Shown here: piece by piece, positions 10,889-17,503 of the stretch
Numbering within the stretch: the first letter of the stretch is position 1
How the letters are laid out: every line of letters begins with the position of its first letter
Virus record (IMG/VR): IMGVR_UViG_3300030107_002709
Location: 1-64,000 of that record
Source: a virus
Direction: 5' to 3' (one strand)
Length of the DNA: 64,000 bases
The notes under the pieces: model-generated
What the model was told of the DNA's origin: nothing
The model's database searches: none
The model's input: only the letters and a program-made list of their open reading frames with translations
Made by a program: the position numbers and the translations under genes

Positions 10889-13800
10889 TTATGTCCTCGT
10901 ACATATTATAACATCAACGTACTGTACAGCCAAGTCTATAGTACCAGCAGTAAATCCAACAGAACCAGTCATAGCATTTGGGGTAAATGTTGAAGTGATA
11001 GCACGATTATCAGATATATTACTTTGAGCAAGAGATAGGTTTCCTTTTGCAAGTGATAGACCAGGCATACTATTTCCAGAAAAATCTATATTACCAGTAG
11101 CAGCAAGATTTCCTTTACCTGCATCCATAGATCCACTAATACCTGCAGTACCAGAGATGTTACCAGTACCATCTAAGTAATGTCCATGACCACTACCTCC
11201 ACCAGAACCAGCAGTTGAGACCATCACTTGAGTTGCTATAACATTTGCTCTACCATCATCGGTAGAGTTTCCTCTCCTTTGATATCTTCCTTCAATATAA
11301 TTATGTCCATGCCAAGGCATCTGAGAATTACTAATAGCATGAGATCTAGCATAAAGGTTACCTGGATATGCTTTCATGTTTCCAGCATTAATTGAGATGT
11401 TACCCATGCTTACATTAGGACTACCACTAATACCCATAGAAACACTAGCAGAACCACCAGATCCCCAGGTATGAGTTGGTGAACCATTGAGTTGCAAATC
11501 CATAGAGAGATTTCCAGAGGTATTATCAAAGCTGGATTGTACATTACCACTAATACCAAGGGTTGAAGAATCAATACTACCTCCTGTAGATTGTGCGTCA
11601 GCAAAAGCAGTAGTAAATGCTCTATTACCACCAACACCACCACCAGATCCACTCACAACTCTAAGTGCTTTATTGTTATGTGATGTAGACTTAACCCAAC
11701 CAACAGGTGCTGAAGCCTGTGCAAATAACATAGCAGTACCAGTAGGAATATCAACTCTACCTGCAGGAAGACTTATTGTTTTATCAGTTCCACCATTTCT
11801 TTGGAAAGTAAATGTACCAGCAGTAAAGAAAACATCATCAATATACCTACCATCAAGATTACAGTTTGGAGTTTGAGTACTATCACTCTTAAAAGCTTTT
11901 ATATTACCAGCACCACTATCCCATTGCAGTGAAGTAATTGCTACATCTTGAGCAGTATCAAGTTTATACCTACCATCCAAGTCAACAGTAATAGGGGTTT
12001 TTTGAGTACCATTACTACCTTCTACACCTCTGATAATAGTAAGTACACCATCACTAGTATTAAAAGTAGCAGACTGTGCATAATCTTGGTGTCTTATATA
12101 CCTATCATCAAGATCATAGGTGTAGCTATCTCCATTACTAACAGACAACATTAACTCACCGTCAGTAAAGGAGAAATTATCTACTCTAGTATCACTAGCA
12201 GTGATTGGTGCATACAATGTATCAAGATAATCATATAAAGCTTCTGTTTCAATATCTACATTAATATTATCATTCCTACCCAATCTCAATATTGGTCTTG
12301 ATATATGATATCCTGGTGGGTTACTAGTAGCAAGAGGCCATGAACCACTACTAACATAATTATTATCACCTTGACTTGTTATGTAACGTCCATCAAGATT
12401 AACTATTATAGATCCAGTTCCATCATTAGGAGTAAGAGTAAGGTTACCACTACCAGCACTCCAGTTAGCAGAAGTGATCTTAGCATCAGCAAGACCACCA
12501 GATGTAACGTACCTAGTATCAAGATACGCTTGTAGATTAGATACAGGAATATTAATATCCTGTAACGAATCAGTTCTCTCTATAGTTAATCCTCCAGTTA
12601 TAGCACTATAGTATGCGTTATCAACATAACTGTTACTATTATCAGAACTGATAGCAATGATGTTACCAGACTGAACCATTGTAGTAGATCCACTGGCTTG
12701 GAATGATATATCACCAGAAGCATATGCTCCTCCTGTAGTTCCTGGTCCAGTTATTCTCAACCGTGTGATAGTATCAGTGTCTGTATCAGTAGCAGCTATA
12801 GTAATATTACCATTAGATTCTCTAGTAACTGTTGCGTTAGCACCACCAATTATCTTTGCTTCCTTTACAGGATCTCCAAGAGCATCACCACCAGGTATCA
12901 ATCTAATAGAAGCACCACCAGAGGTAGTCTGTGTATCTAAATCATAGGTACTATCAGTATCAGTTCCTCCTCCACCACCGCTACCACCACCGCCAAGGGT
13001 TATAGTATTACCAGAACGTGCTATTGTTAAACTAGAACTAGAGTCAACAGCAATAGTTACTGAATCTTCACTTCCATCAACACCAAGAAGTTGTATCTTT
13101 TCACTGTATGAATCATTACCATCTGCTGCTGCTAAATCGTAAGTTGTATCTTGGAAACTAGAACCAAAATTTATAGTATTACCAGAACGTGTGATTGTAA
13201 TATCATTCTGCCCAACAATAGTTACATCATCAGTTATACCATCATTATCAGTCAGTCTTATCTTAGCCGTGTTTGTTGATCCACCAGCTTCACCAGTTAA
13301 ATCATATGTCTTTGGAGTAAATCCACCACTCGCAGGTAGATCTGACCAGAATATACTACTACCATCTGTCTTCAAAAATCTATTAGTCTGAGATCCAACA
13401 GCAGGAGCAAGTCCTAAGAATGCTGCTGATGCTGTGGTGTTACCAGTACCACCCTTATCAATAGGTATAGTACCACCAGCCCAAGTACCTGTAACATCAC
13501 CACTAAAGTTTCCATTCACTGCACCTATGTTACCAGTGAGTGTTAGAGCAGCAAAGGTAGGTGTAGATGTAGTTGCTATTTCCTGTGCTATAGAAAACTG
13601 TAGATCAGTAAGTGTTATACCTGTTCCAGCAGTGTATGTTGTATCAGTAGATCCTATCTGAATTGTTTGACCAGTCTGTGCTACTGTTGTAGCATCAACT
13701 CCTGTGAAAACTATATCACCAGATACTAAAGTACCGCCACTAGCTTGTAGTCTAGTAACGGTGTTATCATTAACAAATGCTGAGTCAATTATAATTTCAT

Positions 13801-14131
13801 TAACACTACGAGTAAGAGTTACATTACTACCAGCTCTGAATACTATCTGTTGCTGACCACCAACACCACTTTGTGTGAGATTAATAACCTTTTGATTTGC
13901 ATTAGGTCCATCACCAGCAGCAAGAGTTACGCTATCACTATCACCCCATATCAGTTCTGAGTTGTTCCCAGCTTTTAAAATTTGACCAGCAGTTCCTGTA
14001 GTGCCTCCATAAGCTTCTACAGGTCCACCAATCCTTAATGTTTTTCCAGCAGAAACTGTTAAACCCTCTGGGAATTCAACCGATCCAGTTCCTAACTGAT
14101 TGACTATTTGGTCAACTCTTGCTCTAGACAT
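10889..14131 (-). CDS. tail fibre protein with collar-like domain (1080 aa)
   Basis: N-terminus paralogous to the 1850-aa fibre; LDGRY repeats; GTAMLFAQASAPVGW..ALRVVSG and C-terminal LAVQYVDVIIC. Confidence 0.85.
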   Translation of the reverse strand: MSRARVDQIVNQLGTGSVEFPEGLTVSAGKTLRIGGPVEAYGGTTGTAGQILKAGNNSELIWGDSDSVTLAAGDGPNANQKVINLTQSGVGGQQQIVFRAGSNVTLTRSVNEIIIDSAFVNDNTVTRLQASGGTLVSGDIVFTGVDATTVAQTGQTIQIGSTDTTYTAGTGITLTDLQFSIAQEIATTSTPTFAALTLTGNIGAVNGNFSGDVTGTWAGGTIPIDKGGTGNTTASAAFLGLAPAVGSQTNRFLKTDGSSIFWSDLPASGGFTPKTYDLTGEAGGSTNTAKIRLTDNDGITDDVTIVGQNDITITRSGNTINFGSSFQDTTYDLAAADGNDSYSEKIQLLGVDGSEDSVTIAVDSSSSLTIARSGNTITLGGGGSGGGGGTDTDSTYDLDTQTTSGGASIRLIPGGDALGDPVKEAKIIGGANATVTRESNGNITIAATDTDTDTITRLRITGPGTTGGAYASGDISFQASGSTTMVQSGNIIAISSDNSNSYVDNAYYSAITGGLTIERTDSLQDINIPVSNLQAYLDTRYVTSGGLADAKITSANWSAGSGNLTLTPNDGTGSIIVNLDGRYITSQGDNNYVSSGSWPLATSNPPGYHISRPILRLGRNDNINVDIETEALYDYLDTLYAPITASDTRVDNFSFTDGELMLSVSNGDSYTYDLDDRYIRHQDYAQSATFNTSDGVLTIIRGVEGSNGTQKTPITVDLDGRYKLDTAQDVAITSLQWDSGAGNIKAFKSDSTQTPNCNLDGRYIDDVFFTAGTFTFQRNGGTDKTISLPAGRVDIPTGTAMLFAQASAPVGWVKSTSHNNKALRVVSGSGGGVGGNRAFTTAFADAQSTGGSIDSSTLGISGNVQSSFDNTSGNLSMDLQLNGSPTHTWGSGGSASVSMGISGSPNVSMGNISINAGNMKAYPGNLYARSHAISNSQMPWHGHNYIEGRYQRRGNSTDDGRANVIATQVMVSTAGSGGGSGHGHYLDGTGNISGTAGISGSMDAGKGNLAATGNIDFSGNSMPGLSLAKGNLSLAQSNISDNRAITSTFTPNAMTGSVGFTAGTIDLAVQYVDVIICTRT

Positions 14132-14851: not shown

Positions 14852-14880
14852 ATTATAGCACAAGATGTTTAGTCTTGCAA
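14852..14880 (-). promoter_or_regulatory. sigma70-like promoter
   Basis: TTGCAA-17nt-TATAAT with extended TG. Confidence 0.75.
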
Positions 14881-15213
14881 CGCTTCATCCTTTGAAGCTA
14901 TTTCCTTTGCTTTCTTATTGCTGTAGTATGCGATAGCAAGTATAGAAAGATACATGAGTGTATCATCTAGCATCACAAGGAAGAAGATGATAGACCCACC
15001 TATCCTTATCCAATCAGGAACAATTTCATTTAACTTCCTATTGATTCTACGAACCAGTCTTTCAAATGCAAAGTATATTAATACCAATGCAGTGACTGTA
15101 AACTCACTGTAAGGTACAACAAAATACAATGAAAAGAATATAAAACCTGGCCAGTAATGTCTTTCAGGTATCTTATTAACTAATGTTAGGTATTTCCGTA
15201 TCAGTTTTCTCAT
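14869..15213 (-). CDS. hypothetical membrane protein
   Basis: Several hydrophobic stretches in a 114-aa ORF. Confidence 0.65.
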   Translation of the reverse strand: MRKLIRKYLTLVNKIPERHYWPGFIFFSLYFVVPYSEFTVTALVLIYFAFERLVRRINRKLNEIVPDWIRIGGSIIFFLVMLDDTLMYLSILAIAYYSNKKAKEIASKDEALQD

Positions 15214-15400
15214 CTAATATCTCAGGATATATTCTCTTATCATCAGACTCATATGGTGGTTGAATTGCAACCACAAATGTACTAAAGTCTGGTGGTTCTG
15301 TGCCCTTGATAGCAGCAGTACCAGTAGCCACCAAACCCACAGAGAGTGTTGAGGCAATCATTGCTGCTTCAGCGAACTCTAAAAGCTTGTAAATGAACAC
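15176..15400 (-). CDS. hypothetical protein with N-terminal hydrophobic segment
   Basis: Probable GTG start at 15400 (or the later ATG, MIAST), downstream of the structured RNA. Confidence 0.5.
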   Translation of the reverse strand: MFIYKLLEFAEAAMIASTLSVGLVATGTAAIKGTEPPDFSTFVVAIQPPYESDDKRIYPEILDEKTDTEIPNIS

Positions 15401-15421
15401 GGGACTGTTTAATAAAGAAGT

Positions 15422-15534
15422 GCTGAGAGAACGGGGCATCTGCAAGGTTTCACCTATATGCCCAAATTTACCTCTAGGGAATCGCTTACACCTGAACCCC
15501 CAGAAATGGGGCTAGAGAACCGTTATCCCTCAAC
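15422..15534 (-). ncRNA. candidate structured RNA (~113 nt), family unassigned
   Basis: Closing stem GTTGAGGGATAACGG/CCGTTCTCTCAGC, inner stems CTCTAG/CTAGAG, CCCCA/TGGGG, GGGCAT/ATGCCC; 5' end 7 nt after a TATACT -10 box. Confidence 0.65.
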
Positions 15535-15540
15535 AAATAT

Positions 15541-15584
15541 AGTATAACACATAGATGGGCAGTGTGTCCATCCATGTGCCACTT
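15541..15584 (-). promoter_or_regulatory. sigma70-like/early promoter with upstream AAGTGGCACA motif
   Basis: TGGACA-18nt-TATACT with extended TG; motif 28 nt upstream of the -10. Confidence 0.7.
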
Positions 15585-15769
15585 CAATAATCGTCCTCTT
15601 GCATCTCAATAAACTCTTTGTTCTGCCTACAGATACCATGTACATCAATCTCTTGATGTAAGTGAGCAGAGGTGTGAAGACCCTCTATCAGTAATAGTAC
15701 TGCTAGTAGCATCACTGGGGTGAACCATAACGGATTACCTATAACTTCACCTGCTGTTTCTTTTCTCAT
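15584..15769 (-). CDS. small hypothetical membrane protein
   Basis: Hydrophobic helix; overlaps pebS stop (ATGA). Confidence 0.6.
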   Translation of the reverse strand: MRKETAGEVIGNPLWFTPVMLLAVLLLIEGLHTSAHLHQEIDVHGICRQNKEFIEMQEDDY

Positions 15770-16392
15770 TCTGCGTAAGGGAAAAAGAACTCATCCATCA
15801 TTCTATTAGCATTCTCCTTACCAAAATTACCAGTAAGGTATCCTAATATAGGATCTAATCTCTTCATATAAGAATCAAAATCTTTATACTGTGTGGTGTC
15901 CTCACCAGTAGGTTGTGCCTTGTCTATCATCTCTCTATAGAGGGTCAGATAATACCTGAATGTTGGTACATATGTATCAACCTCATCCATGTTACAATAT
16001 CGCACAAAAATATTCTCCGAGAAGTGGTTACCCATCTCGAAGAATCTATAAGTCTTATCAGCTTTAGGTAGAGGGGGTACATTTAGTACATAGTTCTCTA
16101 CTGGATGCTGGAAATCGAATACGATGATAACTTTCTTGTGAAAGAACCCCATGAGATCCATCCCAAAGCAAGGAAGGTTGTGCCCTGTCTTAGGATACAT
16201 TACATTGTTATAGATATCAGTCTTATCACTCCTAATATCCACCTGTCTAGACTTGATAAAATGTGGTGCAGTATAATTATCTGCCGTCATGTTCAGATCA
16301 TCTTTATTGCACCAGTTACACCACCGAGATTCAAACTTGAACTCAGGGAATATATCATCCAGCGTTTTCTTGTAGTTCTTCCACAGATTCAT
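15766..16392 (-). CDS. pebS: phycoerythrobilin synthase (ferredoxin-dependent bilin reductase)
   Basis: YPKTG.NLPCFGMDLM.F..KKVIIVFDFQHP, YRFFEMGNHFS.NIFVRYC and LDP motifs closely resemble cyanophage PebS; start set at MNLWKNY. Confidence 0.92.
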   Translation of the reverse strand: MNLWKNYKKTLDDIFPEFKFESRWCNWCNKDDLNMTADNYTAPHFIKSRQVDIRSDKTDIYNNVMYPKTGHNLPCFGMDLMGFFHKKVIIVFDFQHPVENYVLNVPPLPKADKTYRFFEMGNHFSENIFVRYCNMDEVDTYVPTFRYYLTLYREMIDKAQPTGEDTTQYKDFDSYMKRLDPILGYLTGNFGKENANRMMDEFFFPYAE

Positions 16393-16561
16393 TATATTTA
16401 TCCCAAGGATGTATGTACTCAGAGCTACCAACAGCAGACTGAGGTACGGCTGCAATCACACGACCACTAGGTAGTCTGATTAGAAACTGTTCTCCTTCTT
16501 CAATTTTTGTTAAGTAACTATCGTAATCTTTTTCAAATTCTGCATGTGTAATTTCAATCAT
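16355..16561 (-). CDS. Phd/YefM-like small protein
   Basis: EITHAEFEKDYDSYLTKIEEGEQFLI...VIAAVP resembles the Phd/YefM N-terminal pattern. Confidence 0.5.
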   Translation of the reverse strand: MIEITHAEFEKDYDSYLTKIEEGEQFLIRLPSGRVIAAVPQSAVGSSEYIHPWDKYNESVEELQENAG

Positions 16562-16815
16562 ACTAAGCAGCAAATCTCATTGTTTTTCATGTATGTAATA
16601 GAGTCTTTACATCCACCAAGATGTACTCTTTCCTCATTTTTATCTAACTGTACTTGTGGGAAGGTAGCACCTTCTCCAAAGGTTTTATAGAATTGTTCTG
16701 ATGTAAAGTCAGTGTCTAACTCATACACAACATGTTCTAAGTTTGAAAGCTCACATACTGCCTTAAATTTCTGACAGTATGAGCATCCAGGCTTTGAATA
16801 TATGGTAAAGATCAT
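16558..16815 (-). CDS. nrdC: glutaredoxin
   Basis: IYSKPGCSYC (CxxC), TFPQV, LGGC motifs. Confidence 0.9.
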   Translation of the reverse strand: MIFTIYSKPGCSYCQKFKAVCELSNLEHVVYELDTDFTSEQFYKTFGEGATFPQVQLDKNEERVHLGGCKDSITYMKNNEICCLV

Positions 16816-16831
16816 TCCTAGTTGGTCTTTA

Positions 16832-17503
16832 TTACGGACTATTTAGGATAGCTTGACCCTCAATAGAGGCAGCATAATCCTTATCAAAGATATCTAACCC
16901 CTTATCTGTAAGGATATGATTGTACATTCCTTCAAAGACTTTGACTGGTATAGTACAGATGTGAGCACCATATTCAAATGCTCTACCTACATCTCTCACA
17001 CCTCTAATAGATGCGGCTAATATTTGTGTAGAATCCCATGATTGCTTCTCAAATACGTTAGCAATGTCTTTAATAAGACACAATCCACCGAAGGAATTAT
17101 CATCCACACGACCCACAAACGGTGAAACGTATGCAGCACCTGCTTTAGCAGCAAGAATTGCCTGTGATGGTGAGAATATAAGGGTAACATTGACTCTTAT
17201 ATTATTCTCAGCAAGTTCCTTACAAGCCATCAATCCATCTGGTGTACAAGGTACTTTAATGGTAGCACATTTAGGGAATTTCTTCGCTAATCTCTTACCT
17301 TCAGAGACCATGTTCTCTTTGCTACCAATGACTTCCATACTGATGTCGGTAAGACCAATCTCTTTGATCTCTTGGTAGACTTCTTCGTGGTTTCTACCAC
17401 TCTTTCTGATCAATGATGGGTTAGTAGTTAAACCATCAATTAAACCAGTCTTAAAATGTTTACGGACTTCATCCGTTATCGCTGTATCTAAAAATAATTT
17501 CAT
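16832..17503 (-). CDS. talC: transaldolase (TalC/FSA family)
   Basis: LFLDTA, GLTTNPSL, TIKVP, NVTLIFS, YVSPFVGRVDD, ILAASIR. Confidence 0.95.
   Translation of the reverse strand: MKLFLDTAITDEVRKHFKTGLIDGLTTNPSLIRKSGRNHEEVYQEIKEIGLTDISMEVIGSKENMVSEGKRLAKKFPKCATIKVPCTPDGLMACKELAENNIRVNVTLIFSPSQAILAAKAGAAYVSPFVGRVDDNSFGGLCLIKDIANVFEKQSWDSTQILAASIRGVRDVGRAFEYGAHICTIPVKVFEGMYNHILTDKGLDIFDKDYAASIEGQAILNSP

Follow-up and report, generated by a model that had tools for sequence, protein, structure and literature searches.

Marine cyanomyoviruses are already represented in Rfam by orphan RNA motifs such as manA (RF01745) and wcaG (RF01761), which have a conserved, covarying fold and stand before varied downstream genes. 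The function of these motifs, as of PhotoRC-II and glnA, is unknown or only partly known. The element described here resembles them in these respects. It is a 113-nt RNA encoded on the minus strand at positions 15422-15534 of the window, by which is meant the whole stretch of 64,000 nucleotides that was analysed (positions 1 to 64,000 of the IMG/VR virus record IMGVR_UViG_3300030107_002709). It matches none of the covariance models of the manA, wcaG, PhotoRC-II and glnA RNAs and differs from these in being built on a three-way junction with a fixed 20-nt bulge; unlike the Rfam cyanophage motifs, its family was met, by exact patterns, only in viral DNA. Comparison with related sequences identifies the element as a real structured RNA, one copy of a strongly conserved family in marine cyanophages. 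The family and its fold are new and uncatalogued; the general kind, orphan structured RNAs in phage leaders, is known. It is very probable that this real structured RNA of a new family heads a transcript.

Several better understood systems share part of this design. Purine and TPP riboswitch aptamers place their P1 helix beside the message and combine covarying helices with fixed junction bases and an arm of variable length, all of which is also seen here, but the element has neither a consistent gene association nor a detectable expression platform. Riboswitches normally precede genes of one pathway. The put elements of phage HK022 and the EAR element of Bacillus are promoter-proximal, act in cis on their own polymerase, occur in one or two copies per genome and are indifferent to the genes that follow; the put RNA consists of two simple stem-loops. 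The cyanophage element lies close behind a promoter-like box in 58 of 107 upstream contexts and has strong terminators downstream in 7 of 34, which would be a likeness to put and EAR in layout only, with no sequence or fold resemblance shown. The flavivirus xrRNAs, too, have a compact three-way junction with fixed junction bases at the 5' border of an RNA. Unlike an xrRNA, the element has no ring-closing pseudoknot that could be found (both candidates fail on conservation), and at a +1 position an exonuclease would have no upstream strand on which to load.

Closest in phage type are the PeSL cassettes of T4-type coliphages. As described by Arbiol et al. 2010 (PMC2839356), these join a sigma-70-like early promoter to a stem-loop, lie in variable early regions and mark points of cassette exchange. 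The likeness lies in the coupling of an early-type promoter with a structured element in T4-type phages. PeSL stem-loops are simple terminators present in many copies (PMC2839356), whereas the element is a 113-nt multi-helix fold placed past the promoter, with one copy per genome. A simple terminator stem-loop in many copies does not describe it: the 132,963-base record of the window carries this multi-helix element once.

Fold, family and covariation of the RNA element

The element was first pointed out in a preliminary description made from the letters of the window alone. The minus-strand sequence quoted there is found letter for letter at 15422-15534, and its impression of a GC-rich island holds (50% G+C against 38% in the surrounding 2 kb). 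The folding energy is weak evidence when taken alone, since at -38.7 kcal/mol (z = -1.87) the sequence is equalled by 9 of 200 shuffled versions. Thermodynamic folding being unimpressive, the case has been built on comparison with relatives.

The fold consists of a closing helix, P1/P2, and a three-way junction from which two arms emerge, P3-P4 with the 20-nt bulge and P5a-P5b with a UGAAA loop (Table 1). P1 has 9 bp, two of them G.U pairs, and is followed by the 3 bp of P2, to which P5a is joined without an intervening base. The closing helix with G-U pairs and two arms had been anticipated by the preliminary description, and covariation now backs the helices P1, P2, P3, P4 and P5a. About 40 unpaired bases are almost fixed across the family, namely those of the 20-nt bulge, of GUAAAUUU, GUU and UA, and of the UGAAA loop; the window copy carries the near-invariant bulge CAGGUGUAAGCGAUUCC, the same GUAAAUUU junction and the UGAAA loop, as does the family. 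P4 is the sole tolerant site. It ranges in relatives from 14 nt to more than 200 nt, with other folded modules inside, and the window copy has the shortest arm seen. Long P4 inserts, for example at the related loci L163, L185 and L199, start with CCC-GAA, end with AGUA-GGG and hold other modules nested between these strands, which we take to resemble the bulged-G (sarcin-ricin / loop E) motif.

The relatives collected from marine viral contigs and from the phages P-SSM2 and P-SSM5 number more than 130 distinct sequences. A blastn search of 50,697 phage records brought up the element in three records of P-SSM2, in P-SSM5 and in four marine single-cell virus contigs; one further record, the ninth, matches only the upstream open reading frame (ORF). 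The conserved block corresponds to window positions 15424-15533, similarity ends at the edges of the element, and the homologous stretch is without annotation in the P-SSM2 and P-SSM5 records. A 22-nt core, which occurs once in the window (0 expected from 100 window shuffles), is present in at least 121 IMG/VR contig stretches; the core matches listed amount to 128 instances, and those with full flanks to 104 distinct versions of 200 nt. Because this set was selected by the core itself, a second scan was anchored on the 3' half alone, with the pattern AAATTTGG N5-11 GGTGAAACC. It gave 111 distinct stretches, which by eye were classed as 96 family members and 15 unrelated chance matches. The core is exact in 76 of the 96 members and differs by one base in the other 20, mostly through a change of the second U of GGUUCAGG to A or G, with a few cases of GUGCAAG or of C-to-U. 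A family model with 29 seed sequences matches the window at 15423-15533 over its full length (1-117) with 114.9 bits and E 1.3e-27, a score that partly follows from the presence of the window copy among the seeds.

Searched as exact patterns in 185,579 prokaryote species, one genome each, neither the 22-nt core nor a three-block pattern gave a match. A host origin of the element was accordingly rejected, and the family appears, by such exact-pattern searches, to be viral only; it belongs to P-SSM2-like cyanomyoviruses. There is one copy in 32 of the 33 viral records searched whole, which include the window's 132,963-base record, the complete P-SSM2 genome (252 kb) and a 202-kb record rated 100% complete. 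The remaining record, IMGVR_UViG_3300006332_000008 (L019/L020 = L135/L161), has two copies about 900 bp apart with a 147-aa gene between them, one with a short P4 arm and the other with a long one.

The preliminary description had left the RNA without a family, and the catalogues agree. A cmscan of the 64-kb window with the 4227 families of Rfam 15 gave no match at gathering score; within 15300-15700, at E<=10, the only entry was mir-15 (E 4.8), outside the element, and in 18 related loci (17.9 kb, E<=1) only Phe_leader and tsr31 appeared, at chance level and likewise outside it. With no covariance-model match in the window or in the 18 loci, membership of a known Rfam family, wcaG, manA, PhotoRC-II, glnA and abiF included, was rejected, as was a tRNA or tmRNA: ARAGORN recognises none in the window, nor in 7 related loci. 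No description of the RNA turned up in the literature searches made, core words included; the sole matches to motif words were to a 12-mer in two adenovirus papers and in the preprint of one of these.

Evidence for the helices comes from three comparisons. For the 29 short-arm members (alignment A2), the RNAalifold consensus contains 36 pairs, and compensatory changes occur in 13 of these. Four pairs inside the bulge were dropped because the invariant bulge offers them no support, which leaves 32. Pairing is kept in 98.9% of their cells and falls to 30-60% once the 3' partners are shifted by 1-3 columns (slid controls); changes on both sides are seen in 13 of the 32 pairs, against 1-4 in the slid controls; none of 500 shuffles reached the observed values of pairing and covariation. 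Alignment A3 takes 87 model-aligned matches from the 3'-anchored set, reduced to 81 distinct rows; 95.3% of its cells are paired and compensatory changes occur in 24 of 32 pairs (7-13 when slid), figures to be read with the knowledge that these rows were fitted to the model and that some very long-armed members are misaligned at the 5' strand. The covariation suggested as a check in the preliminary description is thus present in both alignments.

The third comparison used 88 distinct members rebuilt from two halves, with the variable arm omitted. The number of members paired is 74-88 in P1, 86-88 in P2, 87-88 in P3, 81-88 in P5a and 88 in P5b. Exchanges of the type UA/GC/AU and AU/GC/GU are found in P1, GC<->AU and UA<->CG in P2, two or three pair types at four positions in P3, and GC<->AU<->UA and CG<->UA in P5a. 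Mutual information added a sixth P5a pair (UA 47, GU 19, AU 10 and CG 7 of 88) and an extra P5b pair (AU 42, CG 35, GC 2, U.U 9), while the outer P5b pair exchanges AU<->GC<->UA and is formed in 88 of 88. The divergent locus L237 keeps all conserved unpaired bases but has GAUCUGAA/UUCAGAUC as P1 and CCCGUA/UACGGG as P3 instead. In members of the L283 type, P1 is GUCAGGGA/UCCCUGAC and the P5b region reads GAGUGAAACUC, a G-C to A-U change, present in some relatives, within the otherwise constant GGUGAAACC. Across the helix cells of the 88 members there are 64 G.U and only 2 A.C combinations, and the fold is therefore assigned to the minus strand and to a single-stranded nucleic acid.

Two pseudoknots were considered. 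The one proposed in the preliminary description, TGTAAG with CTTGCA, can indeed form in the window copy, but it is not conserved: UGUAAG is fixed in the family while its partner varies, so that, of 131 distinct members, 15 could form all six pairs, 9 could form five and 107 no more than four, and the pairing was discarded as a family feature. The other, between UUCA of the bulge and UGAA of the P5b loop, is unsupported: at least 14 members have A or G in place of the second U, yet the loop does not vary.

Table 1. Positions of the RNA element, its promoter-like site and the neighbouring genes in the window
Feature	Position	Strand	Remarks
-35-like hexamer TGGACA	15565-15570	-	10/12 promoter matches, spacer 18
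Extended -10 box TG-T-TATACT	15541-15549	-	sigma-70-like, ends 7 nt before P1
Predicted transcript start	15534	-	first paired base of P1, G15534; 7th base after -10 box
P1 5' strand GUUGAGGGA	15526-15534	-	pairs with 15422-15430
J1/2 UA	15524-15525	-	unpaired, conserved
P2 5' strand ACG	15521-15523	-	pairs with 15431-15433
J2/3 GUU	15518-15520	-	unpaired, conserved
P3 5' strand CUCUAG	15512-15517	-	pairs with 15472-15477
P4 hairpin CCCC-AUUUCU-GGGG	15498-15511	-	minimal form of the variable arm
20-nt bulge GUUCAGGUGUAAGCGAUUCC	15478-15497	-	between P4 and P3; near-invariant
P3 3' strand CUAGAG	15472-15477	-	pairs with 15512-15517
J3/5 GUAAAUUU	15464-15471	-	junction strand, nearly invariant; part AAAUUUGG used in search pattern
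P5a 5' strand GGGCAU	15458-15463	-	pairs with 15434-15439
P5b hairpin and flanking internal loop	15440-15457	-	outer pair formed in 88 of 88 members, with exchanges
P5b stem AGG/CCU, loop UGAAA	15453-15455 with 15445-15447; loop 15448-15452	-	AGG-UGAAA-CCU = 15455-15445
P5a 3' strand AUGCCC	15434-15439	-	pairs with 15458-15463
P2 3' strand CGU	15431-15433	-	pairs with 15521-15523
P1 3' strand UCUCUCAGC	15422-15430	-	pairs with 15526-15534
A+U-rich spacer to next ATG, 60 nt	15362-15421	-	without terminator-like site
61-aa ORF, unconfirmed gene	15176-15361	-	ATG at 15361; without Pfam or PHROG family
114-aa hydrophobic ORF	14869-15213	-	phage family of unknown function, phrog_1248, E 9e-47
Virion structural protein, downstream	10889-14131	-	
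61-aa phage protein, upstream	15584-15769	-	phrog_27060
Ferredoxin-dependent bilin reductase, upstream	15766-16455	-	Pfam E 3.8e-18; PHROG E 1.2e-58
Glutaredoxin, upstream	16558-16815	-	
Transaldolase, upstream	16832-17503	-	

Promoter geometry and genetic surroundings

In the window, the highest-scoring promoter-like site on the minus strand between 14800 and 16600 is the arrangement TGGACA, 18-nt spacer, TG-n-TATACT at 15570-15541. As the preliminary description had it, the element begins 7 nt after the TG-TATACT box, G15534 being the seventh base past it, and to judge from this spacing transcription probably starts at the first base of P1. Similar geometry recurs in the family. Among 107 distinct upstream contexts, 58 have a -10-like box (TATTAT, TATAAT, TATACT and similar hexamers) that ends within 6-10 nt before P1; the distance is 6-8 nt in 55 and exactly 7 nt in 43. 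A TG extension accompanies 43 of these 58 boxes and a -35 match of at least 4/6 accompanies 36. Some of the contexts come directly after a G+C hairpin with a T-run, and in 5 of 34 contexts the 300 nt upstream of the core contain strong terminators. At L058, L031, L046, L138, L147, L156 and L157 the element is preceded by terminator-promoter cassettes built as GCCCCCUAUACAGGGGG-U6-AAUGCUAUUAUAU. Their hairpin overlaps the -35 region, a layout like that of the PeSL cassettes of T4-type coliphages (PMC2839356).

The flanking ORFs share the strand of the element, and a downstream ORF start is present in 34 of 34 contexts. What follows the element is either an A+U-rich spacer and then an ORF, or more conserved folded modules and then an ORF. 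The first downstream ORFs fall into 22 unrelated clusters in the 34 contexts, the largest of which has 8 members and encodes an acidic peptide of 37-42 aa. With such variety, the specific link drawn in the preliminary description, which had offered a leader for the two downstream hydrophobic ORFs as one possibility, finds no support. Directly after the window element no terminator-like site was found, the first strong minus-strand terminator being at 14192-14173. A U-rich run lies directly 3' of P1 in 25 of 122 members and is wanting in the other 97, and 7 of 34 contexts show a strong terminator beyond the core, at a distance of 306-370 nt. At L237 (= L288, 234-400) a strong terminator, GGGGGGCAGUAAUAUGCCCCC-U7, stands about 25 nt past the element, and the locus's own P5a word GGGCAU is repeated between the two. 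This layout would allow an exchange of strands between terminator and antiterminator; it is a single case. The U-runs, the downstream terminators and the layout of L237 are hints of control over transcript elongation.

Some of the downstream modules deserve a description of their own. At L016, L056, L008, L026 and other loci a second conserved module, approximately CUGCUGCAACCCCC-UUUGGUAGUUUC-AGGGUUGGAGGCGAUAGGAAACUACC, lies directly 3' of the element. Two of its stems covary between loci (CAACCC/GGGUUG against CUAAUC/GAUUAG; GGUAGUUUC/GGAAACUACC), it often precedes a U-run, and at E<=1 nothing in Rfam matches it. L001 (P-SSM2, 2619-2720), L011, L014 and L126 carry a third module, in which GUGGUAUG/CAUACCAC forms the closing helix. 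Its words CAGUAAAUGGG and CAGGUGAAGCACCU resemble GUAAAUUUGGG and CAGGUGUAAGC of the element in reverse order, and the module may be a distant or permuted relative of it.

Upstream of the element, the minus strand of the window carries a host-like metabolic cluster at 15766-17503, with bilin reductase, glutaredoxin and transaldolase. Downstream, the 61-aa ORF is nearly identical in two relatives and has no tblastn match in the 50,697 phage records. Between the window and one relative, L139, there is 1 difference in the element, 4 in the spacer and 2 in the 61-aa ORF (both at codon position 3), while the promoter region and the 114-aa gene have diverged; the segment 15214-15421 differs at 6 of 208 nt, against 72 of 345 nt in the 114-aa gene. 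The sequence GCCUCAACACUCUCUG at 15345-15361, from 6 nt past the ATG of the 61-aa ORF, resembles a second copy of the family's P1 3' strand with its usual tail. A perfect pairing with the 5' strand of P1 would be possible, and the sequence may be a recombination relic or a local switch. In the minimum free energy fold of 195 nt (15340-15534), both strands of P1 are re-paired around the ATG of the 61-aa ORF, because GCCUCAAC just past this ATG matches the P1 5' strand. With z = -0.29 and only three near-identical sequences that have this context, the 195-nt fold is regarded as an oddity and not as evidence.

Proposed function and rival explanations

The layout of the locus favours a leader that acts in cis, since the window has no terminator after the element and a U-run follows it in only 25 of 122 members. 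We infer, with a probability of about 0.4, that the element serves in cis as a leader domain and binds a conserved partner, in the manner of a riboswitch or of put and EAR. Host RNA polymerase would start at the sigma-70-type early promoter and, if the first transcribed base is also the first base of P1, the nascent RNA would fold at once. It would thereby place a closed three-way-junction domain at the 5' end of the message, whatever genes come next. The fixed unpaired bases would form a pocket or a surface to which one conserved partner attaches, whether a small molecule that reports the state of the cell or a component of the transcription or translation machinery. Since a plain 5' hairpin is enough for protection, these fixed bases point to the specific recognition of one partner, and since the downstream genes vary, the partner should be a general one that is not tied to one pathway. 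The domain would set in cis whether the message is extended, translated or kept, and its base-paired 5' end would in addition shield the message from decay that needs a free 5' end. A more pointed version, in which the element is the sensor domain of a phage-only class of regulatory RNA, be it a riboswitch for a small molecule that signals the condition of the infected cyanobacterium or a binder of host RNA polymerase that makes the enzyme ignore terminators, is put forward only tentatively and is rather unlikely as it stands.

A number of observations weigh against a cis-acting leader with a conserved partner. The start and the 3' end of the transcript are both predicted from the DNA. A standard promoter directly upstream is wanting in 46% of the contexts: 28 of the 107 have the conserved motif GGGGGGACGCAUAAAGUGUCC...UAUAGU instead, immediately next to P1, 14 have a further RNA module there with UGUAAGUCC at its end, and 7 have nothing recognisable, from which it follows that the element is not always at the 5' end; the L237 copy starts 20 nt past the stop codon of an ORF. 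An aptamer-like fold, fixed junction bases and genes directly downstream are all present, as in riboswitches, but the genes do not belong to one pathway, the first ORF being of 22 clusters in 34 contexts. Nor was a conserved expression platform or switch found by the tests for alternative partners of P1 and P5a. Of 101 members, 21 have a second partner for the P1 5' strand within 200 nt downstream, where shuffles predict 18.7. Of 128 members, 3 repeat the P5a word as a 6-mer (expectation 2.7) and 20 as a 5-mer (expectation 9.8). Finally, the homologues come from related phages and do not count as independent sequences; the structure, moreover, was deduced from these very sequences, a circumstance that gives it an advantage over the slid controls. 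As to the GGGGGGACGCAUAAAGUGUCC..UAUAGU motif (for example at L016, L012 and L089), it always accompanies the GUGAGGGA form of P1 and may be a phage-specific promoter or a hairpin.

The same body of evidence can be read in other ways. The element might be a stable non-coding RNA, released from the transcript or ending at its own U-run, that works in trans as a decoy, a scaffold or a base-pairing small RNA. An own promoter-like site upstream, a compact closed fold with a paired 5' end and a single copy per genome, as for an RNA gene, would suit this; so would the U-rich run behind P1 in 25 of 122 members and, at L237, the strong terminator about 25 nt past the element. The A+U-rich spacer behind P1 could be an RNase E cleavage site. 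We nevertheless think such an RNA unlikely, since the U-run is wanting in 97 of 122 members and in the window, and since no stretch of 11 nt or more elsewhere in the 132,963-base phage genome is complementary to the conserved single strands. The predicted first base sits paired in P1, and the element is found in tandem or nested with other folded modules, as interchangeable protective units would be, which raises the question whether the fold is purely protective, a 5' cap or, as in viral xrRNAs, a block to 5'-3' exonucleases that would let early messages outlast host RNase E and RNase J and that needs no partner. For that task a simple hairpin would do. About 40 fixed unpaired bases exceed the need, one copy per genome is odd for a general stabiliser and a conserved pseudoknot was not found among the two candidates examined, so that a purely protective role seems distinctly unlikely.

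Small ribozymes are common in phage DNA, and a small multi-helix junction with many fixed unpaired bases has their usual look. That the element is a new class of self-cleaving ribozyme by which the early transcript is trimmed is all the same very improbable: the element matches no ribozyme family of Rfam 15, cleavage inside a domain that begins at +1 would have no obvious use, and a conserved flanking cleavage context is not seen. Still harder to credit is a signal at the DNA level, whether a PeSL-like recombination seam for the shuffling of cassettes or a primer site of a replication origin, with the RNA fold as something secondary. It would account for the mosaic helix variants, in which the 5' strand of one type meets the 3' strand of another and still pairs through G.U, for flanking genes that vary on either side and for the terminator-promoter cassettes directly upstream in some members, and a single copy would suit an origin. 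Against it, the compensatory changes and the 64:2 excess of G.U over A.C speak for selection on the single-stranded fold of one strand. A replication origin at the element was rejected, there being no GC-skew turn near 15.4 kb in the 133-kb record, which is a weak test.

P-SSM2-like myoviruses infect Prochlorococcus and Synechococcus, which are among the most numerous photosynthetic cells on Earth. To our knowledge, these phages are without the MotA/AsiA switch of T4, and how they control their early genes is little understood. An RNA with covarying helices, about 40 fixed unpaired bases, a single copy per genome and a predicted place at the start of an early transcript has a profile typical of those that later prove to be polymerase-binding elements, riboswitches or ribozymes. 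The family occurs widely among abundant viruses of the ocean, and a cultured model system exists, P-SSM2 on NATL1A/NATL2A; the window copy, having the shortest P4 arm seen (113 nt in all), is convenient for probing or structure work. If the sensor reading is true, a phage-only sensor RNA would gate the first wave of gene expression in some of the most abundant viruses of the ocean.

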